Made by a program: the position numbers and the translations under genes. Of a stretch of 44,087 nucleotides of DNA, positions 13,885-44,087 are shown piece after piece. The notes beneath the pieces were generated by a model. The model was not told the DNA's origin. It was given only the letters and a program-made list of their open reading frames with translations, and ran no database searches. Position 1 is the first letter of the stretch; every line of letters begins with the position of its first letter. This stretch comes from Gemmatimonadota bacterium. Its GTDB lineage: Bacteria; JBHIER01; G020348925. The stretch covers positions 4,417,688 through 4,461,774 of the forward strand of contig CP070758.1 in NCBI GenBank assembly GCA_020348925.1, read 5' to 3'.

Positions 13885-14757
13885 CTATTGAGGAACCATT
13901 TCTCGGTGTTGTTCCTGCATCTCCTGAATTCTGTTCTGTAATGTCTTCTGTTGTCTCTCTAGAGTCAACAATTCTGGGTCCGGTTCAATCTTTTCGCTCT
14001 TTTTGCTCTCAATGTTCCTTCGAATTACACCGGCTTTTTCCTGAATTCGGATGGCAATGATCCGAACTTTCGCCGGTTCTCCTCCAGTCCTCTGGAGGTC
14101 CAAGGCCAAGGCATCCAAGTCGGCAGCCCGCTGTTCCATTACGGCCTTTTTTACCGTCCAAATTTCTCTTTCGATCGATGATGATCCAACAGTCTGAGCC
14201 TCTGAGTGGATTTGAGTCCGAAGACCTTCGGCCTGATTCTTCAAATCAGTGGCAATGATGCGTATCTGTGTGGGCGTTTTAAAAACTTGACGCAATGTAT
14301 TGCCTAAATTTTCAATTTCATTGGCGTGATTCTCCAACATTTGGAGTATTTGGACTCGAGTTTTTTTCCTCTGGCTCTCCTCTTTTTGTAACTCAACGAT
14401 CCTTCCCTGAATCTCTTTCAATTTTTGCTGGAGATCCTTTATCGCCTGACTCAGTTCTTCGCGTCGACGCGTCCGACTTTCCGTTTGTCCCGCTTTAGGG
14501 GTACTAGACCCTTGCGCAGTCTGGGCCTGCTGAGGTTGCTCTTTCGTCGCCACGGGCGGTGGTGCTTTTGGCTCCTCTCTCGATTCTACAACAGGATTTG
14601 CTTCTGATTCTACAATTCCCACATACTCCTCGGATGTTTGAGAAACAGAAGAGAGTTTTTGTCTGCGACTCCACTCGCTTACGATCACAAAGGCGGCGAT
14701 CACAACAGTAATTCCGATAATGATTACTACTGTGTGTCTCTTACAAAAATTAACCAT
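13885..14757 (-). CDS. Hypothetical membrane-anchored coiled-coil protein
   Basis: N-terminal TM helix, P/Q/E-rich linker, long heptad-rich region; own sigma70 promoter. Confidence 0.75.
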   Translation of the reverse strand: MVNFCKRHTVVIIIGITVVIAAFVIVSEWSRRQKLSSVSQTSEEYVGIVESEANPVVESREEPKAPPPVATKEQPQQAQTAQGSSTPKAGQTESRTRRREELSQAIKDLQQKLKEIQGRIVELQKEESQRKKTRVQILQMLENHANEIENLGNTLRQVFKTPTQIRIIATDLKNQAEGLRTQIHSEAQTVGSSSIEREIWTVKKAVMEQRAADLDALALDLQRTGGEPAKVRIIAIRIQEKAGVIRRNIESKKSEKIEPDPELLTLERQQKTLQNRIQEMQEQHREMVPQ

Positions 14758-14964: not shown

Positions 14965-16500
14965 CTAAGTGATAACCCTAAAAACATTTACATCGAATTT
15001 ATCGGGATGGAGACACTTTAAGATCGTACGCACAAATGTCCCTGTTTCAGCCTCTCTCTCGCTCAAGTCCACAGTTTTCCCTTTTATTTCATTACCGCTT
15101 TTATCAGCGATCACTTTCACGATAGGTCTATCTAAAAAGGTCGGATTTCCATGGGTCTGCACAACCACGGCCAATTCTCCACTGTCAAGAACAACGAATG
15201 ATCCAATAGGGTATAATCCGACCGCATTGATGAACAGCTTCATCAAGACCGGGTCAAAATCTTTTCCGCTTTTTTCTATCATTTCCAAAAGAACACAATC
15301 CGGCGTTTCCTTTTGAGATTGATCGGGTTGGGGTGTTGTTGCGACATCGAAATGATCGGCAATGGCGATAATTCTGCTGAAGAGATCGAGTTCCTTTCTC
15401 GGTGACAGGTTGGGATAGCCTGAGATGTCGAACTTCAAATGATGTTCCAAAATTGCCTTCATCGCCCTCACAGGAAGTTCTCCGAGACTCTTCATCTCCA
15501 TCAACATCTCGACACCGTACTGTGGGTGTTTCTCAGTCAGCTCTTTTCCCTCTTCTGAGGAGAGAGCGTCCTTTGAATCGAACTCCGTAGGATGAGGTAT
15601 TTTTCCTAAATCATGGAAAAGAGCCGCTAAGCCCAATTCTCGAAGGGCGTTCTTTTCCAATCCCACTTTCTGACCAAGGGCTACTGCCAAGATGCAGACA
15701 TTGACCGAATGATTTAGAATATATTTATCGTAGTGCTTCATCGTTGTCAAACCGATTAAATACGATTCGTCTTCCGCTATAAGATCAACAAGGGATTGGA
15801 CAAGCCGCTTGACTCTTCTTATGCCAATTTTCTGTTCCGATTTGCCCTTAAACATAATTCCCTTGAGATTGTAAATGCATTCGAAAAAGGTCTTCTTCGC
15901 CTGGCGACGAATCCCCATGAGATGCTCTTCCGCCGATCGTTTCGACGCAGCGGAGAACTTATGTATTGAGATCCGTTCGATATTCTCGGTTCTGAATTGA
16001 TTTTGAAATTCTTCAAAGGTGATATTTTGGCGCTCCTCATGGGCTAAAAGTTGAAGAAAGCAACCGAGCTCCTCTTTTGTCAAACCATAATCGAAAAAAA
16101 CCCCTTCAGTATTTCGTCTCTTCAGAGCGTCGATGATGAATTTCGTGTGCATGTAATTCTGAAACTCTGTTTTTATCTTGACCCGGTTGAAGAATAGGCA
16201 GTGCATGTAAACTTCAAGGGAGACAACATCCTCATTTTGAAAGAGTGACGCGAAGGTGGTCATTAATTTATCGATCTGTTTTTGAAATCCATCGTTGTCG
16301 GAATCATACAACTTTCTCGCCTTGATTGCCGTATGAAGCTGATTAATGAGAAGGTTCCCCTCTCTCAAATGTGCCTTTTCATCGAAATCAAGCAGGTCCA
16401 AATGTAAACCTCCTGCTTCGTACTGTTTCTGGTCGGTTTTTGCTATCATCGGATACTCCATCTCTCCTGGCGATATTGTGGGTGCGGTCTTCTCTTTCAT
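14965..16500 (-). CDS. HD-GYP domain protein (cyclic dinucleotide phosphodiesterase family)
   Basis: HSVNV, LFHDLGK, EHHLKFDISGYP, SRIIAIADHFD, FDP, GLYPIGS. Confidence 0.88.
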   Translation of the reverse strand: MKEKTAPTISPGEMEYPMIAKTDQKQYEAGGLHLDLLDFDEKAHLREGNLLINQLHTAIKARKLYDSDNDGFQKQIDKLMTTFASLFQNEDVVSLEVYMHCLFFNRVKIKTEFQNYMHTKFIIDALKRRNTEGVFFDYGLTKEELGCFLQLLAHEERQNITFEEFQNQFRTENIERISIHKFSAASKRSAEEHLMGIRRQAKKTFFECIYNLKGIMFKGKSEQKIGIRRVKRLVQSLVDLIAEDESYLIGLTTMKHYDKYILNHSVNVCILAVALGQKVGLEKNALRELGLAALFHDLGKIPHPTEFDSKDALSSEEGKELTEKHPQYGVEMLMEMKSLGELPVRAMKAILEHHLKFDISGYPNLSPRKELDLFSRIIAIADHFDVATTPQPDQSQKETPDCVLLEMIEKSGKDFDPVLMKLFINAVGLYPIGSFVVLDSGELAVVVQTHGNPTFLDRPIVKVIADKSGNEIKGKTVDLSEREAETGTFVRTILKCLHPDKFDVNVFRVIT

Positions 16501-16502
16501 GA

Positions 16503-18251
16503 TTATTGCTGAGCTTCCTGAAGTGCGGTCATACAGGCACTTTTTATCAGATACGAAGAATCATGGCTGTATTTATTCAAAAGGTGATAGGTTATATCAG
16601 AATAGTGTGGACCAAGGGCCAAAGCTGCACATATACGAGTTTCACTATGTCTTTTTCGATGGATAACGAACTTTTTCTTCATAAACGCCTCCAGAATTTG
16701 AACGCATTGTTGGGAACCGACGCTCCCCAGTATCGATAACAACGCTTTTTTCTCTCTGAAGCGCCTGGCATGGAACGTTTTTCTTCGGATGACATCTAAA
16801 AGGGGTTCAATATTATGGCCGTCACTAATGGACTCAAGGCTTTCGGCAGCCAACGCGCGAACCTCATGATCTTTATCCGTCAAGAAATCTATTAACACTT
16901 TTTGAGCCTTTTCATTTGCGATATGCTTCAAGGCCAGAATTGTTTCTTCCCTGACTCCCTTGAGATTGTGCTTTCTAAACGTTTGGAGAAGCTCAGGTCC
17001 ATTTTCATCCCCTGTTTTCCCCAAAACAGATACAAGTTGTCTGGCCACCGTCTCCGAGGCATTCTCAATGGGCCGAATCAAACGCGGTGCCTGTTCTCGT
17101 GCCAACGTCTCAAGCCCTTGACAGATCGTCGCTCGTATTTTCGAAGATTTGATCTCCTCAAGAAGGAAACATATCGAGCCGATCGCCGTGGGACGAAGTT
17201 CGGCAACGAACGTACAGAGATCATGGGATTCACAGGGAAGTTGAGCCTTCAAACCAAACCGGAATAAATTCATTTTCTCCCCCTCTGAGAACCCTCGTAA
17301 CAAGACTTCAGCAAACCGAGCTTTCGATGGAAAACTCCTTTCATGTTCCTCTGAAAATTTCGAAAGCTGCTTTATGATGACGTTCAAGGGAGCATAAACA
17401 CACTTGGTTAACAACTCATCAGAATACTCCTCCATGAGCTTAAATACCGGCATATATCGATCTTCATCATCTTCGAGGCGCAACACATCGAAAATAATAG
17501 CCACGAGTTCCTCCTCGGCATTGAAGCATTTACCGTGTTTCAATACTCCAAGAAGATCTTCGATTTCTTCGTCTTTAAATGCTTTCAATCGAGACAGAAT
17601 CATGGAATTGAGTCTTTGCTCCTTCAAATCAAAATCCGAAAGGCATTCTTCAATCCCTGATCGCCTCTCAAGAACAGCATCCGTTTCGTCCTGAGAATCA
17701 AACACAGATTTTTGAGAATCGAAATCGGAGAGAGCATGTTCAACACTTTCAATCTCTTGGTCTGGGATTTCATCGATAGCATAATAATGGATGTGGTCAA
17801 AATCTCTTGCCCAGAAAAGGCTCACAATATCTCTCTCCGTTTGAGGCAAACCGGCATTGATTTTTAAGGCCTCGAGAAAGCCTCTGATCTCCTGGTAGGT
17901 GAGTCCCTTTTCAAACCTGATTTCGCGGATGCCGTCATTGAAGAGCATAAAAATGAGACTGCTCCGCTTATCTTCCTCTCGATAGATAGATTCGCCTTGA
18001 AAGACTATTTCAGATTCGGTCAACCGAATATCCAGTTGATCGTAGACCTCGAAAAACTCGTCAAACGTTTTATTGAGATTGAGAAGGGTGTTCTGAAAAA
18101 GAGGGTGGTCCGGTGTATACGTCCTCATGGCAGAAAAGGCTTTGTACAACAGAAAAATAAGTACTTCGACACTTAACTCAACAGCCCCTACCTGTTTTTT
18201 CACCTTAAGCTGAGACGCCGGCACTGGCTTTTCCGCAACAATGTTGCTCAT
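16503..18251 (-). CDS. HEAT-repeat protein
   Basis: N-terminal TYTPDHP..LFNDGIREIRF.. domain, then HEAT-like repeats (VREETILAL, EVRALAAESL, TRICAALAL). Ends 2 nt before the HD-GYP gene. Confidence 0.82.
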   Translation of the reverse strand: MSNIVAEKPVPASQLKVKKQVGAVELSVEVLIFLLYKAFSAMRTYTPDHPLFQNTLLNLNKTFDEFFEVYDQLDIRLTESEIVFQGESIYREEDKRSSLIFMLFNDGIREIRFEKGLTYQEIRGFLEALKINAGLPQTERDIVSLFWARDFDHIHYYAIDEIPDQEIESVEHALSDFDSQKSVFDSQDETDAVLERRSGIEECLSDFDLKEQRLNSMILSRLKAFKDEEIEDLLGVLKHGKCFNAEEELVAIIFDVLRLEDDEDRYMPVFKLMEEYSDELLTKCVYAPLNVIIKQLSKFSEEHERSFPSKARFAEVLLRGFSEGEKMNLFRFGLKAQLPCESHDLCTFVAELRPTAIGSICFLLEEIKSSKIRATICQGLETLAREQAPRLIRPIENASETVARQLVSVLGKTGDENGPELLQTFRKHNLKGVREETILALKHIANEKAQKVLIDFLTDKDHEVRALAAESLESISDGHNIEPLLDVIRRKTFHARRFREKKALLSILGSVGSQQCVQILEAFMKKKFVIHRKRHSETRICAALALGPHYSDITYHLLNKYSHDSSYLIKSACMTALQEAQQ

Positions 18252-33179: not shown

Positions 33180-33388
33180 AGATAAAATCCTTGTTTTTCC
33201 CCGGTTCTTGAGTTAAACTAAGTAGATTTTACAATACCTGTGAAGACTACTCTTACGGTGAGACCCTTCAGGTGCCGTGGGCTCGGCAGGATGGTTCTTG
33301 TTGAAAAGACTGTATCCGATGAAGAGTGCTGGTAGCTGAATGAACCTCAGTTTCACAGGGTCTTTTTCGAAAACGGATGGGGTGGATT

Positions 33389-34180
33389 ATGGATGCGTTC
33401 ATGTATTTCTTGATCTTTTGTCTCGGTCTGGCGATTGGCAGTTTTCTCAACGTATGTATCTATCGGATTCCAGCACAAAAGTCCCTCATTCGGCCGGGAT
33501 CGCACTGCTGTCACTGTGAGGCACCGATTCGACCATACGACAATATTCCTCTTGTGAGCTTTCTTATACTTGGCGGGAGGTGCCGCCGGTGTCGGGCGAA
33601 AATCTCCATCCGATATCCGGCGGTTGAACTGATGACGGCGCTCCTGTTTGTGGCTCTTTTCCGCGCATACGGCCCCTCGCTTCAATTCCTGATCTATGGT
33701 CCGCTCATGGCTGCGCTTCTCGTCATAACGCTCATCGATTTGAATCAATACATTATTCCCGATAGGATCACCATACCTGGTGCTCTCGTCGGTCTTCTCT
33801 GTTCCCCCCTCAACGCTCAGCTGGGTTCTGGGGTGAAGGGCGTTTTCGCGTCGCTCATCGGATTTTTCATCGGCGGGATTCTTTTTTTCCTGATAGCCCT
33901 TTTGGGAAGTGCCGTCTTCAAGAAGGAGAGCATGGGGGGTGGTGATATTAAATTAGCCGCCATGCTTGGGACTTTTCTCGGATGGAAGGGAGCCCTATTT
34001 TCTTTTTTTCTCGCATTTTTTTCAGGGGCGCTTATTGGGGCGATCGTTTTACTGGTGTCGTCGCACAGGAGCAATACGCGGGTCCCCTTCGGACCATTTT
34101 TAGCCCTCGGCGCTGCATGCTATGTATTCTTCGGGGAACTGATACTCGAAACCTATTGGGGGTATGTTTCCGGCCCGTAG
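33389..34180 (+). CDS. pilD: Prepilin peptidase / N-methyltransferase (A24)
   Basis: GSFLNVCIYRIP, CxxC..DNIP..GRCxxC, IDL...IPD, MGGGDIKL, PFGPFL. Confidence 0.95.
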   Translation: MDAFMYFLIFCLGLAIGSFLNVCIYRIPAQKSLIRPGSHCCHCEAPIRPYDNIPLVSFLILGGRCRRCRAKISIRYPAVELMTALLFVALFRAYGPSLQFLIYGPLMAALLVITLIDLNQYIIPDRITIPGALVGLLCSPLNAQLGSGVKGVFASLIGFFIGGILFFLIALLGSAVFKKESMGGGDIKLAAMLGTFLGWKGALFSFFLAFFSGALIGAIVLLVSSHRSNTRVPFGPFLALGAACYVFFGELILETYWGYVSGP

Positions 34181-34280: not shown

Positions 34281-35951
34281 GTGAAACAGTGGGAAAGAAA
34301 AGTGGGCACAGGTGCAAGCTTGAAGATACTCCTTGCCGGATTGCTCTTGATTCTGATGGTATCAGTGATCCTTCTTTCGTGCGTTCCCCCCATCAGCAAA
34401 GATGCCCTCGTTCATCATCTTGCTGTCCCCAAATTGTATCTGGAACATGGGGGTATGTACGAGATTCCACATTGTATACACTCCTATTTTCCAATGAATG
34501 TTGATCTCATGTATATCATTCCTCTGTACTTTGGAAATGACGTCATCCCCAAGTTTGTCCATTTTTTCTTCGGCTTGCTTACGGCTTGGCTTCTGTTCGA
34601 TTACGTGCGACGTCGGATGAATACGATATATGGACTTCTTGGGGCTCTTTTCTTTCTTTCGATTCCCATTATTGTCAAGCTCTCAATAACGGTCTACGTT
34701 GATCTTGGTCTGACGTTCTTTTCCACGGCGTCCCTTCTCTTTCTCCTGAAATGGTTGGAAAACCAGTCTTCTCAGAAGTACCTCATTCTTTCTGCCGTTT
34801 TTTGCGGTTTAGCGATGGGGACGAAGTACAATGGCTTGATCATATGTTTGCTTCTCACATTTTTTGTACCGCTCTTCTCCTTGCGATATACCCAGGAGAG
34901 AAAAGCTGTGCTTGCGAAGAGCATCAGTAATGGTTTTCTTTTTATGATGGTCGCGTTCATCGTTTTTTCGCCCTGGATGCTGAGGAACTTTCTCTGGACG
35001 CACAACCCGGTCTTTCCAATGTATGATCGAATCTTCAATCCCGAAAGCACGCTTATTCAGAAATCTCAGTATCTCTTTGAATTTCGGCGCTACATGTATC
35101 ACGAGACGTGGTGGCACATTGCTCTCATTCCACTGCGAATTTTCTTCCAGGGCCAGGATGGCAATCCCCAGTTTTTTGATGGAGTATTGAATCCGTTTCT
35201 GTTGCTCTTACCGCTGTGTGCCTTTTTCCGGCGGAGAACGGATTCACCGGTCATAAGGAGAGAGAAGAATATTCTGTTCGCTTTCTCGCTTTTATTTTTC
35301 GCCTTTGCCTTTTTTGGGAGAGATCTCAGAATCCGATACCTCTCAGTTATCATTCCTCCGTTGGTTATTTTATCCATGTACGGTATTGAAAAACTCTTAA
35401 ACCTCAGTGCATCGATCCCTTGTTTGATACTCCGCCGAGTGGGATTGATCGGAGTGACCATTCTACTGAGTATCGCCCTGGGGTTGAACGCGCGTTATGT
35501 GGCGAGCCAATATGCGTATGTGGCTCCTTTCGAATATCTCCAGGGATCTATCGGGCGGGATGAGTATATTGCAAGGTATCGATCGGAATACCCGGCCCTC
35601 ATGTACGTGAACACTCATCTCCCGCAAGACTCCCGTATACTCTTTCTCTTTGTAGGAAAAAGAGGCTATTATTGCGACAGGAACTACGTTTTTGACATGG
35701 ATTTGTATAGGGAGAGTCTATTGGGCGATATAGTGAGGGGTTCGAAGAGTCCTGAAACCGTGCAACAGGGCTTGAAGCGCCTCGGCATCACGCATCTGCT
35801 CTTCAATTATGACATCTTCAAAGATTGGGCCCAGACCGTCTTTTCCGACAATGAACAACAATTACTGCGTGATTTTTTCAACACATACGGAGAAGTGCTC
35901 TTTGATGAACGAGGATATGGTCTTGTTCGTGTGACGGACCCCTTCCACTAA
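34281..35951 (+). CDS. GT-C fold (ArnT/PMT-like) lipid-carrier-dependent glycosyltransferase
   Basis: PP...DALVHHL.VPK, YVDL, GLAMGTKY, PW.LRN...T.NPVFP, RYL; many TMs. Confidence 0.8.
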   Translation: MKQWERKVGTGASLKILLAGLLLILMVSVILLSCVPPISKDALVHHLAVPKLYLEHGGMYEIPHCIHSYFPMNVDLMYIIPLYFGNDVIPKFVHFFFGLLTAWLLFDYVRRRMNTIYGLLGALFFLSIPIIVKLSITVYVDLGLTFFSTASLLFLLKWLENQSSQKYLILSAVFCGLAMGTKYNGLIICLLLTFFVPLFSLRYTQERKAVLAKSISNGFLFMMVAFIVFSPWMLRNFLWTHNPVFPMYDRIFNPESTLIQKSQYLFEFRRYMYHETWWHIALIPLRIFFQGQDGNPQFFDGVLNPFLLLLPLCAFFRRRTDSPVIRREKNILFAFSLLFFAFAFFGRDLRIRYLSVIIPPLVILSMYGIEKLLNLSASIPCLILRRVGLIGVTILLSIALGLNARYVASQYAYVAPFEYLQGSIGRDEYIARYRSEYPALMYVNTHLPQDSRILFLFVGKRGYYCDRNYVFDMDLYRESLLGDIVRGSKSPETVQQGLKRLGITHLLFNYDIFKDWAQTVFSDNEQQLLRDFFNTYGEVLFDERGYGLVRVTDPFH

Positions 35952-36078
35952 ACTCTCCCTCCGCTCCCACAATCGTTTCAAAACTCCGCGTGCCTCTTTC
36001 TTCCCTCCAGCCTGATATCCCACTCGTAGGAATCGTTAAAAATTGGTTGGAAGATTTCACCCATCCGCGGGGAATAAT

Positions 36079-36090
36079 TGGGGAAATACC
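36079..36090 (+). promoter_or_regulatory. Candidate enhancer (bEBP) site, copy 1
   Basis: TGGGGAAATACC; its AAATACC starts 167 nt before the -24 GG at 36251, and a near-identical word lies 168 nt before the -24 at 38749. Confidence 0.4.
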
Positions 36091-36248
36091 CCTTTTTTAC
36101 ATTTTCGGTTGCGGCGTTTTGGGAAAACGAGCCCTGGTGTCGTAAGTCAAATCCTGTTGAATTTTTAGAACATAGTATGTTTTAATAACTTATCTAAACA
36201 TTGAACATCAATGTTTGAGGTCCAAGGAAATGTCATTTTTTTTATTTT

Positions 36249-36265
36249 TTGGCATGGTATTCGCG
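36249..36265 (+). promoter_or_regulatory. sigma54-type promoter
   Basis: TTGGCATGGTATTCGCG (GG-N10-GC). Confidence 0.6.
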
Positions 36266-36321
36266 TTCTCTTGGAACAATGAAGATCAAGTAAGCTCTTT
36301 ATGGGAATGAACTGCGAAGAT

Positions 36322-36472
36322 GCCGATAAGGGTAAATCCCGGGAAACCGGGGGGGGGGCACAAAGCTGCGGATCAAAAGACAGTGGTGTTGGTCATATGC
36401 AGACCGAGTGTGCGATCATTGATCTGTTCCGAACAGACAGACACTGACTGGTCACGATAGCCGGACTGCCAA
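36322..36472 (+). ncRNA. c-di-GMP-I (GEMM) riboswitch, variant with poly-G and long P3
   Basis: GGTAAA-TCCCGG-GAAA-CCGG..GCACAAAGCTGCGG...GATAGCCGGACTGCC; G20 and C92 equivalents present. Confidence 0.82.
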
Positions 36473-36603
36473 TGCTACCTGCAATTCTCGGTGGGTCTAT
36501 CTTTTTGTACGAAGGGTCATGGGGGAGGTAGAGGACTCTCGCTGCATTCGACTCCGAGTCTGAAAGAGTCGTGTTGTGAGGGTGCGAGCAAGGAGGTACC
36601 GAA

Positions 36604-37146
36604 ATGATCCGGATTGTTATTGAGGACAAAAGGGAATCCATATTTTATGCTGTTGCTTTGGGATGTGTGCTCCTCTTAGCCGTAGGAGTGACTCTGATGT
36701 ACTGGACCGAACACGATCTTCGGGATATCAGCGAAGCAGGGGATGGGGAACCGGTCACGGTATTTGGGGCAGCGGAGGAGATGCAGCCAATGCGTTCTCG
36801 AGGTGCTGGTCGTGACACACCGGGGAAAGCGATTTCTTTAACCGATTCCTTTTCTGAAAAAGAGACTGATACTCGATCGTTATGGTTTTTCGGTACCATC
36901 GTTTGTACCCTGATCGTTCTTTTTATCTTGACGTTTCGCTACTACTCTCATCGTGAGGTGAAAGAGGCGGAAGATAGGTGGCGGAGAGCCATGAGAAATT
37001 TTATGGCCCGAATGGAAGAGGAACGCGTGCATTCTGAGGATGAGAAACTTCTCCCGGATACAATTTGGTCGCGAATTCTGAAGGGTGAAGAGATTGAGAC
37101 TTCAGGGATGGAAAGAATTGCCATCAACAATCGGAGGAATACGTAA
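36604..37146 (+). CDS. Hypothetical two-TM membrane protein
   Basis: SD AAGGAGGT; two hydrophobic helices; co-oriented with the following HD protein. Confidence 0.7.
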   Translation: MIRIVIEDKRESIFYAVALGCVLLLAVGVTLMYWTEHDLRDISEAGDGEPVTVFGAAEEMQPMRSRGAGRDTPGKAISLTDSFSEKETDTRSLWFFGTIVCTLIVLFILTFRYYSHREVKEAEDRWRRAMRNFMARMEEERVHSEDEKLLPDTIWSRILKGEEIETSGMERIAINNRRNT

Positions 37147-37181
37147 CAGTGGTATGCTTGTGTAAAAGGAGGTGATTTGAT

Positions 37182-38264
37182 ATGGAGAGACTGAAAATTT
37201 TTGTCCTCCGTAATTTTGAAAAAATTCTCGTTACCTGTTTGCTTCTCATTGTGGTTGCGACCCATCTGTTTGTCGTGCACAAGATGGTTTTTCTGAACAT
37301 CTTCTTCCTGCCAGTCCTTGTTTCCGGTTTTGTACTCGGACGGAAAGGGGCAATCCTGACCAGTTTGCTCTCAATTGCACTTGTCGTATATGTCTCGGTT
37401 ATTTATCCCCAAACGTTTCAAGCGAGGGGTCTGGCCACATCGAGTGGAAATATCGATGTCGTTATGGGATTGATACTGTGGGGAGGTTTTCTTACGCTGG
37501 CCGGATATGTGGTGGGGACATTATACGAGCAGAAGGAGAAAAAGGTCCATGAGCTCCGCAGGGCGTACACAGGCATTTTGGAGATATTGACCAAATATCT
37601 GGAGTCGGCCGATCGCTACACAAAGGGTCATTCCTTGAGAGTGGCGGATACCTCCACGGATATCGCTGCTGCCATGAATCTCCCTGAGCATGAAATCGAG
37701 AACGTTCGCGTTGCGGCGCTTCTGCACGACGTCGGAAAGATCGAAATCAGTACGGATATTATTCACAAAGCCGCCAGTTTGACCGAAAGGGAGCGGAAAA
37801 TCATCGAAAGCCATTCGGAGGGTGGAGCCAGAATTCTGGATTCAATGGGAGTCGTGTTGAAGGAGTCCATTCCCATTGTTTTAGCCCATCACCACTACTA
37901 CCGGGACGTCGATTCGACGACAGGCAGCGGTCGAGATCAAATTCCATTGGGGGCGAGAATCATCGCCGTGGCCGATGCTTTCGATGCCATGGTGACGGAT
38001 CGACCGTATCGCCGGGGTAAGCCCGGATGGTTGGCCCTGGAGGAGATCGAACGCTGTGCCGGCGATCAATTTGATCCGGATGTGGTGAGGGCCTTCAAGT
38101 CGGTCTTTCCGGAGATCATGGAAGTAGAAACAGGTGGTACGGAAGCAGTGTGTCCCATGATGGGGGATGTGGAGAGGGAAAAACGCGGCAAGAGACCTCT
38201 CAGGAAAACCACGGAATTACAGCATGTGATTGAAGAACGTGCCAAAATCTCACGTCCGGCTTGA
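37182..38264 (+). CDS. Membrane-bound HD-GYP-like phosphohydrolase (GYP loop absent)
   Basis: About 4 TMs; YTKGHSLRVA, LLHDVGK, AHHH, IPLGARIIAVADAFDAM, DRPYR, QFDP; strong SD AAAGGAGGTGA. Confidence 0.88.
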   Translation: MERLKIFVLRNFEKILVTCLLLIVVATHLFVVHKMVFLNIFFLPVLVSGFVLGRKGAILTSLLSIALVVYVSVIYPQTFQARGLATSSGNIDVVMGLILWGGFLTLAGYVVGTLYEQKEKKVHELRRAYTGILEILTKYLESADRYTKGHSLRVADTSTDIAAAMNLPEHEIENVRVAALLHDVGKIEISTDIIHKAASLTERERKIIESHSEGGARILDSMGVVLKESIPIVLAHHHYYRDVDSTTGSGRDQIPLGARIIAVADAFDAMVTDRPYRRGKPGWLALEEIERCAGDQFDPDVVRAFKSVFPEIMEVETGGTEAVCPMMGDVEREKRGKRPLRKTTELQHVIEERAKISRPA

Positions 38265-38574
38265 AATGAGGCGAGGTCGCTGTCTCACGGTCGAGATGAT
38301 CGCCTTCGGCTCAGGCCTCAGAGTATCCGCTTGCACGCCTCGCCACGGAAAAGGGCCTCATCCTGACAGAAACGACGAAACGGTCCCGAACCGATGCCGG
38401 TCCGGGATCCCGGTCCGTGGGGAAGTTGATGTTCCGAAACAAACAGAGGCTGGGGCCACGTTTGGTATTGTCCCTGAAGATCAGCGAGCCGTACATTTTT
38501 GAAGTGCGTGACCGGTCGAATATTCTGATGATATGGACCGGGCCTGAGGCAGAACTCCCAAACAAGGACCAAAA

Positions 38575-38587
38575 TGGGGCAAATACC
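38575..38587 (+). promoter_or_regulatory. Candidate enhancer (bEBP) site, copy 2
   Basis: TGGGGCAAATACC, 168 nt before -24 GG, followed by an AT-rich tract (38655-38702). Confidence 0.4.
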
Positions 38588-38746
38588 TTACTTTCGATCC
38601 CTTCCTTGATCCAGACCTTTCTCCAGACCTTTCCAAAAAAAGGAGTTTCAGATTAATATTTTATTTCAATAATATATTAAATATTAAATACTTAAATTAA
38701 TTCATCGAGGTTTCTAAGCGGACTATTCGAGTTATCGTAAGCAATT

Positions 38747-38763
38747 TTGGTACGGTTTTCGCA
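38747..38763 (+). promoter_or_regulatory. sigma54-type promoter
   Basis: TTGGTACGGTTTTCGCA (GG-N10-GC). Confidence 0.6.
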
Positions 38764-38825
38764 CTATGATTTAAGTAAAATATGTCGTCTCCCTGCGAAG
38801 AGAAATTCAGTCTGCAGGAGAGAAT

Positions 38826-38927
38826 TGCTCGAAAAGGTAAACCTCGGGAAACCGAGGGGCACAAAGCTGCGGGTCTAAAAACGGTGTGATGGTTTACTCC
38901 CGTTCATGATAGCCGGGCTACCGAAGC
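38826..38927 (+). ncRNA. c-di-GMP-I (GEMM) riboswitch, canonical
   Basis: GGTAAA-CCTCGG-GAAA-CCGAGG-GGCACAAAGCTGCGGGTCTAA...ATGATAGCCGGGCTACCGAA; P1 TGCTCG/CGAAGCA; G20 and C92 present. Confidence 0.93.
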
Positions 38928-38960
38928 ACACAAGGTGATCTTGGGTAGTCCGGTTTTTTT
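38913..38960 (+). terminator. Riboswitch terminator overlapping aptamer 3' end (predicted ON switch)
   Basis: CCGGGCTACC...GGTAGTCCGG followed by T7. Confidence 0.85.
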
Positions 38961-38983
38961 ATGGTTACCAGAGGATAGAATGG

Positions 38984-39403
38984 ATGATGCAGAGACCCGA
39001 AAAAAACAGAAGAAGGAATAAAGGAATGAGGGCGCGCCACCTTTTTGGTCAAAAAGGCTTTACCTTGGTGGAAGTGATGGTAGCCATGTTCATTTTCGGG
39101 ATTTTGGCTACTGGAATAACAACATTAATGGCGGTGCTCATTCAAAACAACGATTTCAGCCGATGCATGACTGAGGCAACCACTCTGGCTGAAAGTAAAC
39201 TGGAAGTCCTTCGAAACGTGGGTTACATGAACATTCCCGCAGGGTGGGGATCGGATGAGCCATCTCCTGACTATTTCAGGTCGTGGATCGTTGAAGAGAA
39301 TGTTCCACAATCCGGGATGAAGCAGATAACGGTAGCGGTGAGTTGGTACAACTCAAAAGGACAGACACATAGTGTGAAAATCTACACAATTTTACACCGG
39401 TAA
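38984..39403 (+). CDS. pilV: PilV-like minor type IV pilin
   Basis: Class III signal QKG|FTLVE, ATTLAESKLE.L, R.W.V, ITVAVSW. Start may be 39026. Confidence 0.8.
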   Translation: MMQRPEKNRRRNKGMRARHLFGQKGFTLVEVMVAMFIFGILATGITTLMAVLIQNNDFSRCMTEATTLAESKLEVLRNVGYMNIPAGWGSDEPSPDYFRSWIVEENVPQSGMKQITVAVSWYNSKGQTHSVKIYTILHR

Positions 39404-39421
39404 TTCTTGCGGAGCACGAAA

Positions 39422-40258
39422 ATGTTTTCGACCATTCGTTTCCATGAAAAGGGTGCATCGATCATAGAATTATTGATTTGTCTTGTCATTGCAAGCGTTC
39501 TGGTGACGTTCATGACTCGATTCTTTGTAGCCCAGAACCGGATATCCCATATCGAGGAACAAGTGAGTTTCATGCAGGAGAATGTACGATTGGCTATGGA
39601 GATCATTACGCGTGATGTGATGAATGCAGGGACCGGTATCCCATCTGGTGAAGGAGTCTTTCCCTTGATCCCGGGTGATGGGGCGTCCGGCAGTTCTGAT
39701 TCACTCGTCATCATGGCCAATTTTGATTATCAGTATACAGAGTTGTTTGAGGACGAGCAAGTGGATCAAACGATACATGTGATGAATGCGACCGGATTTT
39801 ACGTGGGTGGGTTACTGTACATTGAAGATTTTGATGGTGGAGCGTTTCATACGATAACAAGTATTACGTTGGACACACCAAAGGAGGATCAAATTACCGT
39901 TTCTCAACCATTGAATCGGCCCTTTCAAAAGGATGATACAGTAGTCTCGCCGATTGCGAGAGTGAGTTATGGGCTCACTTGGACTGAACAGGGTCGTCCG
40001 AGTTTGGTACGTACGGTCAAAGGCTCAGGGGCGAAGGTGTTAGCTGAGAACATTGAAGATCTTCAGTTTTCATTCATCATGTCTGATGGGTCGGAGACTT
40101 CTCAACCTGCGGATATGACGGAAGTGCGGCTGGTAAAAATCCAGATGACGGCCCGTACGGAAAAAGCGGATTGTGAATTTGTTGATGACGGGTATCGTCG
40201 TCGGACGTTGGAATCTATAGTCCAACCGAGGAACTTGGATCTGCAATGTCATAAGTGA
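39422..40258 (+). CDS. pilW: PilW-like minor type IV pilin
   Basis: EKG|ASIIE, QENVRLAME.ITRDV.NAG, LAENIEDLQF, final PRN. Confidence 0.8.
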   Translation: MFSTIRFHEKGASIIELLICLVIASVLVTFMTRFFVAQNRISHIEEQVSFMQENVRLAMEIITRDVMNAGTGIPSGEGVFPLIPGDGASGSSDSLVIMANFDYQYTELFEDEQVDQTIHVMNATGFYVGGLLYIEDFDGGAFHTITSITLDTPKEDQITVSQPLNRPFQKDDTVVSPIARVSYGLTWTEQGRPSLVRTVKGSGAKVLAENIEDLQFSFIMSDGSETSQPADMTEVRLVKIQMTARTEKADCEFVDDGYRRRTLESIVQPRNLDLQCHK

Positions 40259-40284
40259 AGTTTAAACATCAAGGGGGTGTGTTG

Positions 40285-41571
40285 ATGTTAAAAAACAGAG
40301 TCGGAAACGAGCAAGGTGGAGTGCTGTTCATAGCAGCTTTTGCCACACTGATCATTCTCGTGTGCGGTCTGACGACGTATTACATGGCTACGACCGAATT
40401 GACCGCTTCCAGTGCAAGGTACGAAAAAGCGAAGGCTCACTATCTGGCCGAAGCCGGTGTTCAACGGGCCATTTCTGAGTTGACTTCAGGGATGAACGAC
40501 GGCTGGGATGATGAGTTGATCGGTGCTGATGGCGAACTGGGCACGTGTGACGATGGTATTTTAAGTTTCGGGGCACAGGTTGACTGTTATGTGGATGATA
40601 CCGATTCCCAGATACTGAACGATACCTATTCTCAGACACAAGAGGTGCCAATGAATCAGACACCATGTGATTATTTGGTGGGTCACTACAGTGTACGATT
40701 AAGTGATGGCCGACCTGAGGATGAACGGAACGAGCCGTGCAACAGGGTGATTGTCAGATCGGTCGGGACTTCTGGGAATAATGTTAAAAAAGTGATCGAA
40801 TCAGAATTTGAGACATTTAGCCTCATACGATCACCCTCCACGGCGTTCATTATTCCGGGAGCAGATACGACCGCATACCCCGATGCGGATTACAGCGGTC
40901 AATCCTGGGTCATTGATGGAAGCGATACGAACCCAGGGCTTGATCCCAATGATCCGAGTGATGATGTCCCCGTTTACAATTCCGCTGTTTTCGGGATAGG
41001 TGTGAATGCAAATCCACAATCATTTATTGATAACTTGAGGGACAATCAAAGGGATCAGATACGAGGGGCTGGATTCGATAGCTCATCAGTCCCGCCAACA
41101 CCCAGTATTGGCCAGCTGGACGTGAAGCTTAATTTGGATGAGACCGCCAGTAACATGATGAAGATAGCGGACCAGACTGTAGCCCCGGGAACATATTCTA
41201 CTTTTACAGGATTTGGAAGCCCCAGTGACTACCAGGTCACCGTCTGTGACGGGGATCTGCATCTCAGCGGACAGATACAGGGGTATGGTGTCCTGGTGGT
41301 TACAGGAGACTTTAAAATGTCCGGTTCAGGAACCTGGAACGGTTACATTATTGTCCAGGGTGATGTAGAATTTGCCGGAGGAGGAGATCAGTTTCTCCTC
41401 TATGGTTCGGTCATGTGTGGAACATCCTCAGGCTTGGGATGTTCCACCAAGTTTTCGATCAAAGGGAACGCCGATCTGTATTACTCCTCCTCGGAGATTG
41501 AGAAAGCGCGAGAAGGTGCAAAAGGCGTGGTGCAGAAATCCTGGCGGTCGAAACCAGCAAAGGAGTTATGA
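40285..41571 (+). CDS. pilX: PilX-like pilus assembly protein (paralogue 1)
   Basis: NEQG|GVLF without E5, AHYLAEAGV.RA, IVRSVG, C-terminal G.L.V.GD beta-helix, terminal SWR. Confidence 0.8.
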   Translation: MLKNRVGNEQGGVLFIAAFATLIILVCGLTTYYMATTELTASSARYEKAKAHYLAEAGVQRAISELTSGMNDGWDDELIGADGELGTCDDGILSFGAQVDCYVDDTDSQILNDTYSQTQEVPMNQTPCDYLVGHYSVRLSDGRPEDERNEPCNRVIVRSVGTSGNNVKKVIESEFETFSLIRSPSTAFIIPGADTTAYPDADYSGQSWVIDGSDTNPGLDPNDPSDDVPVYNSAVFGIGVNANPQSFIDNLRDNQRDQIRGAGFDSSSVPPTPSIGQLDVKLNLDETASNMMKIADQTVAPGTYSTFTGFGSPSDYQVTVCDGDLHLSGQIQGYGVLVVTGDFKMSGSGTWNGYIIVQGDVEFAGGGDQFLLYGSVMCGTSSGLGCSTKFSIKGNADLYYSSSEIEKAREGAKGVVQKSWRSKPAKEL

Positions 41572-41655
41572 TCATGTTTGGTGGAATTCATTTTTAAGAG
41601 AGTTACTGTATTCTCTGCGCTCCGTCCGTTCGGAGTTGCGGATGAGAAGGGTGGA

Positions 41656-41745
41656 GAAATAGATACATCGAGAAACCGTGGGACAGAACGCTGCGGAATT
41701 CAAAACGGTTGCGTGTGTGAGGTTCAGACAGCCGAACCGCCGAAG
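41656..41745 (+). ncRNA. Degenerate c-di-GMP-I riboswitch copy
   Basis: Colinear with the 38831-38926 aptamer (GAAA-CCG.GG, GCTGCGG, AAAACGG, GTTCA, GA.AGCCG, CCGAAG), but binding-pocket words are altered (GGTAAA to AGATA, ACAAA to AGAAC). Confidence 0.65.
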
Positions 41746-41779
41746 TGTTTCGAGGACACTTCGGTCGTTCGGCTTTTTT
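41730..41779 (+). terminator. Strong Rho-independent terminator (former riboswitch expression platform)
   Basis: AGCCGAAC.GCCGAAGTGTTT/GGACACTTCGGT.GTTCGGCT followed by a T run. Confidence 0.88.
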
Positions 41780-42160
41780 CTTGTCAGAGCCGTAGGCTTT
41801 GGTGCGATCACTGGAATATGCTTTCAATTTTTATCCAGGATTGTGGATGCCGCACTCCCTGCTGGTGCTCATCACATGCATCCTCTCTTGTGACCGTTGG
41901 GCGGAATCCGGTTGTGTATACACTGTCTCTTCAGGTCCCTGGCGAAGGAGCGCTGCACTTTGGGATACAGGGAGGCTGATGCGTCCGGTGTGGCGCGAGT
42001 CGGGGGGTGGAATCGTGCGGTTTCTGTCTGCAAAATGCGAGAATATATCGTCTGTTTGGTTCGGAAAGTTCCTCTTCCTCAAGTCTATGAACTTGATTAT
42101 GCTCTTGAAATATAAGCGGATAGGCTGTTTCGTTTTCCAAAGCATTCGAACCGCTTTTTT

Positions 42161-42177
42161 TGGGCATGCACTTTGCG
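42161..42177 (+). promoter_or_regulatory. sigma54-type promoter for pilX paralogue 2
   Basis: TGGGCATGCACTTTGCG (GG-N10-GC, TTGC at -12). Confidence 0.6.
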
Positions 42178-42273
42178 TTATGACACAGGAGAGAACGTAA
42201 CATCTGAGGCATGGGGAAACATCGAAGTTGTTACGGGTAGAGACAGACATTTTTACACGAGAGGGGGACAAAA

Positions 42274-43539
42274 ATGCCTTGGACTTTATATCGAAGGGAG
42301 TTGCAAAAACTCCGGCGGAGTGAAAAGGGTAGCGTTCTCTTGTTGGTGCTCTTCTGGGGCCTCATGATTTCGGTTCTCGGTGTCACGGCGTACTATGTGG
42401 CCAACACCGAGATTACGCAGTCCAGTAAGAAATACGAGATGGCCAAGGCCCTCTATTTGGCCGAAGGCGGTCTGGAGAGAGCGATTGTTGAGCTGAAGCT
42501 TGGGATCCGCAACGGATGGGACGATGAGATTGCGGGAGCGGACGGCGATTTGGGAACGGAGGATGACGGCATTCTGAGCTTTGGTGATCAAGTCAATTGT
42601 TACTCGCACGGCTATGGTGATGACTACGATCAGGGAGGGGTCGATTACTGGAATCGGTTCCTGGGGCATTACGATGTGAGGATCGTCGACGGCAGGAGGC
42701 CGGGCGAATCGCCGGAAAAGTGTAATCGGGTCATTGTGGGTTCCGATGGGGTCTCGACGAAAAACTTTGAACGGCGCGTGGAGGCGGAAGTGGAACTGTG
42801 GGAGCTCAAGCTTCCCGAAGCCCTCGTTTACATTGACGGGGGGACGGTCGATGCCAAATTCGATGGGAACGCCTTCCTTTTGGACGGCAAGGATACGAGT
42901 CCGGACGGTTCTCCGGGAGCCGGACCGAATGTCCCCGCGATTCTCGTCTCCAGTTGGCAGGATGCGAACACGATTAAGGAAGGAGTCTTTGATTATCAAT
43001 GTGATAAGATATTGGGCGTGGGCAATCTGTACGGACACGATCCGTGCGATCCCAGTGTCGCCGATCTGGGTGGGTGGAATCCGAATGATTTCAACCCGAA
43101 CAGGTTCAGGACCAAGGATCTTCCCAAGCTGGAAGAGATGGTGAATCACAGGATTCCTGGTGGAACCTACGCCGGGCAGTACACCATCGGTGCCCCTGAC
43201 GAGTATTTGATTACGAAAGCGACAGGAAGCCTCCATATTACCGGCCCCCTGACCGGCTATGGTGTGTTGATCGTTGATGGAGATTTTATCGTGACGGGTA
43301 TGGCGCGATGGGACGGTCTCATCATCGTGAAGAACGAGGCGCGGATGTCCGGAGGCGGCTGCCAATTTCATCTCTACGGGACGCTCATCATACTGAATGA
43401 ATCGGGTTTGGACAATGCCCAGGAGTTTCAGTTTTCCGGCCAGTCCGACGGCTTCTTCTGTAGAGAAAACATTGTCAGGATCCAAGATAGTGTCCAGACG
43501 CTGGTGGTCAACACCTGGCGACAGTCATCAGGGCTGTAG
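42274..43539 (+). CDS. PilX-like protein (paralogue 2)
   Basis: SEKG|SVLL, ALYLAEGGLERA, shared GWDDE..GADG.LGT.DDGILSFG.QV.CY, G.GVLIVDGD, terminal TWR. Confidence 0.8.
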   Translation: MPWTLYRRELQKLRRSEKGSVLLLVLFWGLMISVLGVTAYYVANTEITQSSKKYEMAKALYLAEGGLERAIVELKLGIRNGWDDEIAGADGDLGTEDDGILSFGDQVNCYSHGYGDDYDQGGVDYWNRFLGHYDVRIVDGRRPGESPEKCNRVIVGSDGVSTKNFERRVEAEVELWELKLPEALVYIDGGTVDAKFDGNAFLLDGKDTSPDGSPGAGPNVPAILVSSWQDANTIKEGVFDYQCDKILGVGNLYGHDPCDPSVADLGGWNPNDFNPNRFRTKDLPKLEEMVNHRIPGGTYAGQYTIGAPDEYLITKATGSLHITGPLTGYGVLIVDGDFIVTGMARWDGLIIVKNEARMSGGGCQFHLYGTLIILNESGLDNAQEFQFSGQSDGFFCRENIVRIQDSVQTLVVNTWRQSSGL

Positions 43540-43873
43540 ACAATTTCTTTTCAGGCGTGTGCGCATGAAGTTTTGAATAACAGAGTGCATGCGTTCCGCG
43601 CCCCCTGCTGGTGAACTCATAAACATGGGAAGCCGTTTCCTTCTACGGGCGGCAGAGCTATGATGCTGTCTGCCGAATAACCCAGAACGGGCAAAAAACC
43701 ATTTTCAAGGCATCCGTCACTCTCTTCCCAGTAAAATTCTTGGGAACATGGCAATCACTTTTTTTTCAATCCAGGGAAGTACTACAACTCCACAAAACAA
43801 TTGAAGATTATGAAAAGTGGGACGGTACACTTTGACTGTGGTCCCAGGAAATTTCCACCGGTACGGTCCTTTT

Positions 43874-43890
43874 TTGGTATGATATTAGCG
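43874..43890 (+). promoter_or_regulatory. sigma54-type promoter (weaker match)
   Basis: TTGGTATGATATTAGCG (GG-N10-GC). Confidence 0.45.
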
Positions 43891-43930
43891 TGACGGTATG
43901 CCTGCCTAAACGTGTCTTCGTCGATCGACA

Positions 43931-43986
43931 AAGGGAAACCTCGGGAGACCGGGCTGTTGAGGGAAATCCCTCGGTGGTTCGGCTTT
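43931..43986 (+). ncRNA. c-di-GMP-I riboswitch remnant with deleted core
   Basis: AAGGGAAACCTCGGGAGA-CCG-GGCT joins the P2 5' half directly to the aptamer 3' tail and terminator stem. Confidence 0.55.
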
Positions 43987-44042
43987 CGTGTCGATGCCGT
44001 GAACGGTTTCGCCGAGTGCACTCTACAAGAGAAAGAAGGATA

Positions 44043-44087
44043 ATGCATTCCAAAGCCCAGGAGTGTTTTCATTCCAAAAAAAGTGAG
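44043..44087 (+). CDS. Start of a CDS truncated by window end (possibly another prepilin-like/PilX protein)
   Basis: SD AAGAAGGA, then MHSKAQECFHSKKSE, open to the edge. The basic leader ending ..KSE resembles the RRSE(KG) leader of paralogue 2. Confidence 0.45.
   Translation, partial: MHSKAQECFHSKKSE

Follow-up and report, generated by a model that had tools for sequence, protein, structure and literature searches.

We analysed a stretch of 44,087 nucleotides (nt) from a Gemmatimonadota bacterium (GenBank assembly GCA_020348925.1, contig CP070758.1, positions 4,417,688 to 4,461,774 of the forward strand), called here the window. Its last 8 kb and the adjoining DNA carry a minor-pilin cluster of a type IV pilus which, from gene-family matches, lies between a prepilin peptidase gene and pilM, pilN, pilO and a secretin gene. 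The transcription units of this cluster each appear to be headed by a copy of one duplicated module consisting of a sigma-54 promoter, a leader of about 45-65 nt, an aptamer of the GEMM-I class (Rfam family c-di-GMP-I, RF01051) and an intrinsic terminator. We regard this explanation, taken as a whole with the mechanism described below, as likely. Four cassettes (c1 to c4) begin in the window, in various states of preservation, and a fifth (c5) lies 1.6 kb beyond its end, where a promoter, TGGCATAGTTTTCGCG, is followed by an aptamer and then a terminator.

The features of the array are given below in window positions, unless another prefix is shown. The gathering threshold of RF01051 is 35 bits. 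The genome-derived model is a covariance model built from nine aptamers of the same genome, c2 and c5 included, so that c2 and c5 score high with it by construction.

36080-36090, + strand: conserved upstream box GGGGAAATACC, 171 nt before the -24 element of c1; a candidate enhancer site.
36250-36265, + strand: sigma-54-type promoter of c1, TGGCATGGTATTCGCG, of the form GG-N10-GC, 71 nt ahead of the aptamer.
36321-36473, + strand: c1 aptamer, GEMM-I, RF01051 37.2 bits against 35, with a 68-nt hairpin insert in P1b.
36456-36507, + strand: c1 terminator, weak and of predicted ON type; a hairpin of -11.8 kcal/mol, then UUUUUG, absent when the aptamer is locked.
36604-37146, + strand: first gene after c1, for a membrane protein of 180 amino acids (aa); no Pfam family, and only a 19-bit signal-peptide-type match in NCBIfam.
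37182-38264, + strand: second gene after c1, for an HD-GYP-like membrane protein; Pfam HD_5, E-value (E) 1e-27, 97.4 bits against a cut-off of 27.2.
38577-38587, + strand: conserved upstream box GGGCAAATACC, 172 nt before the -24 element of c2.
38748-38763, + strand: sigma-54-type promoter of c2, TGGTACGGTTTTCGCA, GG-N10-GC, 78 nt ahead of the aptamer, with two mismatches to the consensus.
38826-38925, + strand: c2 aptamer, canonical c-di-GMP-I, RF01051 73.6 bits, E 1e-12, full-length match.
38913-38961, + strand: c2 terminator of predicted ON type; a hairpin of -23.9 kcal/mol, then U7.
38984-39403, + strand: small minor pilin (PilV/GspI-like) of set 1, 139 aa; Pfam N_methyl 38.5 bits against 21.2.
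39407-40258, + strand: medium minor pilin (PilW/GspJ-like) of set 1, 283 aa; N_methyl 18.6 bits, below 21.2; 67% identical to its set 2 counterpart.
40255-41571, + strand: large PilX-like minor pilin of set 1, 438 aa; PilX_N 19.2 bits, below the cut-off of 25.5.
41652-41744, + strand: c3 relic, a point-decayed GEMM-I aptamer without a promoter; genome-derived model 22.8 bits, E 8e-4.
41730-41780, + strand: strong intrinsic terminator of c3; a 69-nt stretch folds at -32.1 kcal/mol, with a hairpin and then U6.
42162-42177, + strand: riboswitch-less sigma-54-type promoter GGGCATGCACTTTGCG, GG-N10-GC, 97 nt ahead of a PilX paralogue.
42274-43539, + strand: the 421-aa PilX paralogue, 38-44% identical to the PilX proteins of both sets.
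43875-43890, + strand: sigma-54-type promoter of c4, TGGTATGATATTAGCG, GG-N10-GC.
43923-44016, + strand: c4 relic; genome-derived model 16.7 bits, E 0.028, with 32 of the 90 model positions replaced.
G000:C1:4461783-4463104 (L010 8784-10105): NHL-repeat lipoprotein gene, split in two frames at a G6 run near L010 9085.
G000:C1:4463382-4463471: c5 aptamer, GEMM-I, RF01051 80.8 bits.

The cassettes are homologous to one another. The promoter and leader of c1 aligned with those of c5 at a z-score (z) of 8.2 (0/500 shuffles), the identity being 73% across 146 nt from the promoter into the aptamer, and the promoters of c1 and c4 aligned at z 5.7 (0/500 shuffles). The spans 41572-41800 and 43866-44043, which hold c3 and c4, gave local alignments with the 38826 cassette at z 10.7 and 10.2, respectively, and none of 300 dinucleotide shuffles scored as high in either case. 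As a control, three neighbouring spacers gave z between -1.0 and 3.4 across three reference cassettes, the top value being that of 38265-38560 against c1 (2/300 shuffles). A first-pass annotation of this DNA had proposed that a promoter-riboswitch-pilX module was duplicated here, and that four elements stand in four states: canonical (c2), structurally modified (c1), point-decayed (c3) and core-deleted (c4). These alignments bear out the duplication of a unit made up of promoter, riboswitch and terminator and place elements 3 and 4 well above shuffled sequence, and alignments to the Rfam and genome-derived models bear out the four states.

In the RF01051 search, c2 and c1 passed the threshold as the full matches that had been expected, and c5 passed it as well. 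All three intact copies have the hairpin with the GAAA tetraloop, as well as the conserved nucleotides of the junctions. Vc2 of Vibrio cholerae is the type example of the c-di-GMP-I riboswitch, and G20, A47 and C92 in its numbering are what we take to be the positions that contact the ligand. In the alignments, c1, c2 and c5 carry the equivalents of these residues (G and A at model positions 11 and 38, respectively, plus a CC in the 3' tail), which points to cyclic di-guanosine monophosphate (c-di-GMP) as the ligand of the intact aptamers. Besides its P1b insert, c1 has a G10 run that holds four extra G, its tetraloop-receptor region is altered, and it scored 47.2 bits with the genome-derived model. 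The G10 homopolymer (36340-36349; L010 1028-1037) lies in the junction after the first hairpin of c1 and is 4 G longer than in the other copies. It is 1 nt shorter in one metagenome contig, and contigs break there; the run may be slippage-prone or just hard to assemble.

From these results, a live module would act as a two-input gate: an enhancer-binding protein would open the sigma-54 promoter, and c-di-GMP would then decide whether transcription passes the terminator in the leader. In c1 and c2, the 5' arm of the terminator is the aptamer's own 3' strand, and therefore ligand binding would prevent termination and switch expression ON. c-di-GMP would thus induce the HD-GYP-like operon, a possible feedback loop, together with minor-pilin set 1. 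In c3, the promoter and the aptamer fold would have been lost and the strong terminator kept, so as to end the set 1 operon and insulate the next gene; the PilX paralogue behind it would have acquired a sigma-54 promoter without a riboswitch. In c4, the promoter would have been kept and the aptamer core lost by deletion, at the head of the frameshifted NHL-repeat lipoprotein gene, both decaying. The intact c5, before minor-pilin set 2, carries an extra antiterminator segment and is predicted to be an OFF switch. The net logic would be that a sigma-54 activator is always required, that high c-di-GMP favours set 1 and the HD-GYP-like protein and low c-di-GMP set 2, and that the extra PilX paralogue is independent of the messenger.

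A further step, which we offer tentatively, is that c-di-GMP may select the composition of the pilus tip through two paralogous PilV/W/X-type operons with shared sigma-54 activation and GEMM-I switches of opposite polarity, the third PilX being uncoupled. The relics could then, just as tentatively, be read as a record of how such a switch came to be wired and unwired, through duplication of cassettes, inversion of the platform and decay. It had been suggested before, from the window itself, that alternative tip sets are expressed under different c-di-GMP regimes; such regimes do emerge as a prediction, though through the predicted OFF switch of c5, outside the window.

Several points weigh against this reading. 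c1 may be impaired: its Rfam score is barely above the threshold, one junction is longer by four G, the receptor region differs and the terminator is weak. The -12 element is TCGC or TAGC rather than TTGC in three of the four promoter sites, the canonical TTGC standing only at 42162-42177. The density of such sites is that of chance, as 4961 sites with at most four mismatches occur in the genome and about 8 are expected per 7.8 kb on both strands. Domain searches found no sigma-54 activator gene within the window. Enforcing the aptamer costs 15-27 kcal/mol relative to the terminator and antiterminator folds. According to an excerpt of PMC9262584, G at the Vc2-G20 position is a factor in selectivity and not a hard filter or a proof of c-di-GMP specificity. 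In the related genome G001, the only one of the same family among 40 relatives searched and of a different genus, neither pilin set has an intact riboswitch, and one keeps a relic; the lineage can therefore dispense with riboswitch control of these operons. The cassettes, being paralogous, do not count as independent observations, and transcription starts, ligand, polarity and physiological outcome are all things that we infer.

The polarity of the switches was predicted by folding. The ten GEMM-I leaders of the genome were each folded free and with the aptamer made unavailable (locked). In eight of them, including c1 and c2, the hairpin that precedes the U-tract (-11.8 to -28.2 kcal/mol) takes its 5' arm from the 3' strand of the aptamer and vanishes when the aptamer is locked. 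For c2, the minimum free energy fold of the free leader (-55.0 kcal/mol) contains the terminator, and the fold with the aptamer enforced (-27.6 kcal/mol) does not. In c5, a segment downstream of the aptamer can form about 20 bp with the aptamer 3' strand and shares sequence with the 5' arm of a terminator that stands apart from the aptamer; this terminator (-20.6 kcal/mol, then U6) forms only with the aptamer enforced, and in the free fold the antiterminator replaces it. In the tenth leader (G000:C1:526582-526659, - strand), the terminator forms whether or not the aptamer is locked. c1 and c2 are thus predicted to be ON switches and c5 an OFF switch. Since the competing folds are more stable than the aptamer-enforced ones by the margin given above, the decision must be kinetic, and folding programs do not model kinetics. 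In the excerpt of PMC9262584, the decision of the pilM switch is shown to be kinetic.

The polarities could instead be the same in all live cassettes, the extra segment of c5 being a scar and c-di-GMP co-inducing both pilin sets. This would fit with c5 being the only such case among the ten leaders, with no relative carrying a c5-type platform having been found, and with polarity resting on thermodynamic folding alone. On the other hand, the pairing of the c5 segment with the aptamer 3' strand, and its overlap with the 5' arm of the terminator, reproduce the way in which the aptamer, antiterminator and terminator of the Cd1 riboswitch are laid out in the same excerpt (PMC9262584), and with the aptamer locked c5 presents a complete hairpin followed by U6. 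We therefore consider a common polarity rather unlikely and retain opposite polarities as the preferred prediction.

The consensus of sigma-54 promoters is TGGCACG-N4-TTGCW, with GG at -24 and GC at -12, 10 nt apart. The four GG-N10-GC sites of the window were located where they had been claimed (36250, 38748, 42162 and 43875) and differ from the consensus at 2-4 of its 12 specified positions. All four are on the + strand, which is the coding strand, and all are in spacers. Three of them lie shortly upstream of an element, as proposed earlier, at 55-78 nt ahead of an aptamer or relic. GG-N10-GC was found at -57 to -78 in five of the ten GEMM-I aptamers of the genome. The region of the 42162 promoter has no significant similarity to the other cassettes. 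Because the raw count is at chance, the weight of the sites comes from their position and homology and not from their number. A pattern derived from the sites themselves, GGYAYRNNNTTNGCR, has 58 matches in the genome, five of them in this 11 kb; it was set aside as circular and not used as evidence. Taken together, the GG-N10-GC sites are very probably sigma-54 promoters.

The box upstream of c1 and c2, GGGSAAATRYC, also occurs 165 nt before the c5 promoter (L010 10151) and at about -190 in two cassettes of G001 (L023 ~870 and 6275). As a marker of a regulon it was rejected: of 40 matches genome-wide only 3 are in this locus, and the box is not specific, remaining a local observation. A similar sequence, TTGGGGCAAATGAC, stands just before pilM (L010 13298).

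The genome encodes one RpoN (a single Sigma54_DBD match, 204 bits) and 24 strong Sigma54_activat matches among 26, as well as 10 GGDEF-domain matches. Three activators are short and sensor-less:

G000:C1:345116-346159, - strand: sensor-less activator, directly upstream of another sigma-54/GEMM-I cassette.
G000:C1:4477585-4478655, + strand: sensor-less activator, 16 kb past the window end.
G000:C1:1967535-1968704, + strand: third short sensor-less activator, 3.6 kb from the aptamer at 1.972 Mb.

The first two consist of an AAA+ domain and a helix-turn-helix only and are each other's closest paralogues (59% identity); they are candidates only for the activators of the locus. GGDEF genes lie within about 6 kb of both.

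The same arrangement was found in other genomes. Among 80 loci examined from the matches listed, at least seven carry a GEMM-I aptamer (56-79 bits with the genome-derived model) behind a canonical TGGCAY-N4-TTTGC site. The underlying scan of species-representative genomes was loose, its matches being mostly due to chance; 73 of the 80 loci lack GEMM-I, and the scan gives no frequency. The loci are labelled Desulfobacterales, Desulfobulbaceae, delta/Deltaproteobacteria, Candidatus Poribacteria and Spirochaetes. These putative promoters indicate that the sigma-54/GEMM-I coupling is widespread. The distance from site to aptamer is about 55-70 nt in L034, L041, L044, L049, L067, L097 and L108. In the loci of other phyla the next open reading frame (ORF), where visible, looks to encode a protein of the secreted or lipoprotein type and not a pilin.

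It might be argued that the sites are not sigma-54 promoters, that the genes are served by other promoters or by read-through, and that the motif was conserved only by co-duplication with the cassette. The chance density and the non-canonical -12 elements fit this view, as do a sigma-70-like pattern that overlaps the c5 site and the absence of an activator gene from the window. However, the canonical site precedes GEMM-I at the same spacing in those seven or more unrelated loci, which belong to three other phyla. The spacing also recurs in G001 and in a metagenome contig (L028), where the flanks have diverged and the GG and GC blocks are kept. Furthermore, no sigma-70-type match is common to the cassettes, rpoN and 24 activators are encoded, and one of the sensor-less activator genes, at 345 kb, directly precedes another such cassette. 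These points make the objection improbable, and we keep sigma-54 promoters as the first element of the module.

As for the ligand, the intact aptamers might sense 3'3'-cyclic GMP-AMP (cGAMP) or another dinucleotide, as cGAMP is the ligand of Geobacter GEMM-I aptamers, that of pilM among them, and the selectivity position is no hard filter (both from the excerpt of PMC9262584). Against this, all three intact copies have kept the G equivalent to Vc2 G20, the intercalating A and the 3'-tail CC, the genome has the 10 GGDEF-domain matches, and c1 stands ahead of an HD-GYP-like gene. Such a ligand is quite improbable, and c-di-GMP remains the one to which the aptamers point.

The relics were examined individually. 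A permissive Rfam scan of 35900-44087 (E<=10) gave no GEMM match at 41656 or 43931, so that the partial or weak hits predicted for elements 3 and 4 did not appear; both were detected by alignment and with the genome-derived model. A further weak match with the latter model at 42058-42150 (14.3 bits, E 0.12) was treated as noise. c3 starts 81 nt past the stop codon of the large pilin of set 1. Half of its 22 modelled base pairs (11) are non-canonical, three of the six pairs of the tetraloop hairpin among them, and the GGUAAAC junction has changed. The leader before the aptamer resembles no other leader (z ~0). c3 has no promoter of its own, none having been recognised earlier for the 41656 copy either. 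A vestigial -24 element at 41578 was considered and dropped, leader similarity being at the level of shuffles (z -0.4 to 0.1). Both c3 and c5 are identical in contigs from a second study. The terminator region of c3 is homologous to that of c2 (z 3.7, 4/500 shuffles), and the 5' arm of its hairpin is the former 3' strand of the aptamer. Because the aptamer is unable to fold, the terminator would be constitutive and, on the predicted fold, would end the set 1 operon.

c4 lacks the whole P2 helix and the ligand-binding pocket. Its promoter, 5' flank and first hairpin strand are kept and are joined directly to a 15-bp hairpin (43949-43982), which resembles the terminator of c5 (z 3.3, 5/500 shuffles). 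The junction of the deletion falls within a short CCGGG repeat, the U-tract is degraded to CUUUCGUG, and the tail of the relic reads CTTTCGTG. The window ends inside the c4 leader; in the genome, the NHL-repeat lipoprotein gene follows. Its frameshift is probably real and the gene a pseudogene, as short contigs of two runs show no indel there. The c4 unit and the broken gene that follows it both appear to be decaying.

On these alignments, elements 3 and 4 are relics of the c-di-GMP-I family and not members, as they are below threshold and their P1a/P2 helices and junctions are broken. The idea that each copy was retuned does not hold for them: with pairs broken and a junction altered in element 3 and the ligand-binding core gone in element 4, both would be loss-of-function relics. 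That all four elements are working sensors, with elements 3 and 4 binding c-di-GMP at altered affinity, or another ligand, and gating their genes, is very improbable, since their homology to the intact copies, the GCUGCGG and CCGAA blocks and ON-type terminator kept in element 3 and its unchanged state in the second-study contig are set against the broken pairs and altered junction of element 3, the 32 of 90 model positions missing from element 4, the failure of Rfam to find either at E<=10, the absence from element 3 of a promoter and of a leader like any other, the lack of a counterpart of the c3 spacer in G001, and the frameshifted gene behind element 4.

In G001, an orthologue of c1 (L023 1143-1294) stands behind the promoter TGGCATGGGTTTTGCT; it has an insert of about 65 nt and scored 48.2 bits with the genome-derived model. 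In its 3' tail, UU replaces the CC at the region of Vc2 C92, and several of its pairs are non-canonical; its ligand specificity may be altered or the copy may be decaying. The promoter before pilin set A of G001 is homologous to that of c2 (z 9.1). One pilin set of G001 has kept its promoter, and its leader retains only the 3' half of a c5-like aptamer (z 8.2; 12.7 bits), which shows that relics are not peculiar to the genome studied here. The two large PilX genes of G001 are 41 nt apart with nothing between them, the 702-nt spacer being absent; on this comparison, the spacer is specific to the lineage studied here, whichever the direction of change.

Six metagenome contigs encode a relative of the large pilin, and two of them (L027 and L028) reach informatively upstream of the pilV-like gene. 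Both have an aptamer with an ON-type terminator. In L028, the promoter TGGCATGGATTTCGCG lies about 165 nt before a complete GEMM-I aptamer with a 91-nt P1b extension (79.4 bits with the genome-derived model), and the ON-type terminator is followed by pilV-like and PilX-like genes. L027 starts within the aptamer 3' strand and continues with the ON-type terminator and pilV/W/X-like genes. The Rfam variant c-di-GMP-I-GGC was considered for c1 (32.4 bits against a cut-off of 59) and for L028, whose score with that model was 60.2 bits, yet the variant position is A, not G, in both, and the variant was rejected.

Proteins encoded in the array were assigned by family searches. The GYP motif of HD-GYP proteins is expected as HHExxDGxGYP. 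In the protein encoded at 37182-38264, HDVGK is present and the GYP motif is not, GSGRDQIP standing in its place; the region reads HHHYYRDVDSTTGSGRDQIP. Its score with the NCBIfam model of c-di-GMP phosphodiesterases was 110 bits against a cut-off of 400, and the product is at most HD-GYP-like by these comparisons.

The small pilin of set 1 matched the NCBIfam prepilin domain (34.1 bits, cut-off 16.3) and is 52% identical to its set 2 counterpart, which matched N_methyl at 37.5 bits against 21.2. The pseudopilins of set 2, behind c5, have 132, 275 and 411 aa and are 52, 67 and 49% identical, respectively, to those of set 1. The large pilin of set 1 is 49% identical to that of set 2 and 38% to the 421-aa paralogue. 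In a language-model atlas of proteins, the nearest clusters to the large pilin carry PilX_N (score 0.98), which is present in 11-79% of their members; a profile search of the PDB with the PilX alignment gave 0 matches. The names PilV, PilW and PilX are thus suggested by prepilin motifs, size, gene order, a sub-threshold PilX_N match and the atlas neighbours. The 421-aa paralogue had no match in Pfam or NCBIfam. The first-pass annotation had also placed the elements upstream of an HD-GYP-like operon, pilVWX and extra pilX paralogues. The HD-GYP-like gene and the PilV/W/X-like sets stand; the fourth element instead precedes the frameshifted lipoprotein gene, and upstream of the extra pilX paralogue at 42274 stands a sigma-54-like promoter without a riboswitch. 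A third PilX-like locus, at 2.906 Mb, was rejected as a relative of the cassettes: its best GEMM-I score was 10 bits, it has no such promoter, and it is unrelated. Searches by tblastn with 11 locus proteins for coding relics in the spacers 38265-38745, 41572-42273 and 43540-44095 and in two others gave a best E of 0.07.

Downstream of set 2, a terminator-like hairpin is followed by pilM, pilN, pilO and genes for a SPOR protein and the secretin. Upstream of the array are two further genes:

33377-34180: prepilin peptidase (PilD-type).
34281-35951: PMT-type glycosyltransferase.

Farther upstream, 20 kb from the cassettes, a second HD_5 (HD-GYP-like) protein of 511 aa (14965-16500, - strand) adjoins a 582-aa HEAT-repeat protein (16503-18251, - strand). 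Two adjacent ORFs of equal length, 290 aa each, lie at 12855-13727 and 13885-14757 (both - strand) and have no Pfam family.

GEMM-I aptamers and their ON and OFF platforms are already known, as are pilus genes under riboswitch control and pilin promoters of the sigma-54 type. What is new is that these parts are combined in one locus, the side-by-side series of copies that runs from intact and modified to terminator-only and gutted, and the predicted opposite polarity before paralogous pilin sets. A literature search, at the level of titles, found no paper describing the sigma-54/GEMM-I coupling, and a search on riboswitch relics found nothing relevant. The coupling would join control of initiation by sigma-54 and control of elongation by a riboswitch in one portable module, and the locus displays what may be the life cycle of such a module, a compact case for studying riboswitch loss and terminator reuse. 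If the polarities are indeed opposite, one second messenger would swap pilus-tip sets, a new way of choosing between paralogous minor-pilin clusters.

Three copies here match the full model of the c-di-GMP-I family above the cut-off. In distinction from the family at large, they are serial within one 10-kb locus, lie behind sigma-54-type promoters and are accompanied by two dead copies, and c1 has a 68-nt P1b extension and a G10 run. Sigma-54- and PilR-dependent pilin promoters, with -24 and -12 elements and an enhancer-binding ATPase, are known from Pseudomonas, Myxococcus and Geobacter; here, a riboswitch-terminator follows the promoter and would form a second checkpoint. Myxococcus xanthus has three alternative minor-pilin clusters. 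Similarly, the paralogous PilV/W/X-type sets of the present locus could build alternative tips; the difference is that here riboswitches of opposite polarity are predicted to select between them. In Clostridioides difficile, c-di-GMP induces pilus genes through the class II riboswitch Cdi2_4 before pilA1. That system differs from the one proposed here in the class of its aptamer, in serving the major pilin, in being a single copy and in having no sigma-54 promoter.

The pilM riboswitch of Geobacter metallireducens, as described in the excerpt of PMC9262584, is of the GEMM-I type, responds to cGAMP and is a transcriptional ON switch whose terminator uses the aptamer 3' strand. The present locus likewise has GEMM-I before type IV pilus genes, and in c1 and c2 the terminator and the aptamer are mutually exclusive. 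It differs from what is described there in that the selectivity position is G, which predicts c-di-GMP, and in that minor-pilin sets would be controlled rather than pilM; pilM here lies behind its own terminator-like hairpin and a spacer. Cd1, before the flgB operon of C. difficile, is in the same excerpt a c-di-GMP-I OFF switch in which aptamer and terminator coexist and an antiterminator bridges them (PMC9262584). The antiterminator of c5 similarly pairs with the aptamer 3' strand and the terminator 5' arm. In contrast to Cd1 as presented there, c5 precedes a minor-pilin operon and not flagellar genes, and it shares its locus with paralogues of the predicted ON type.

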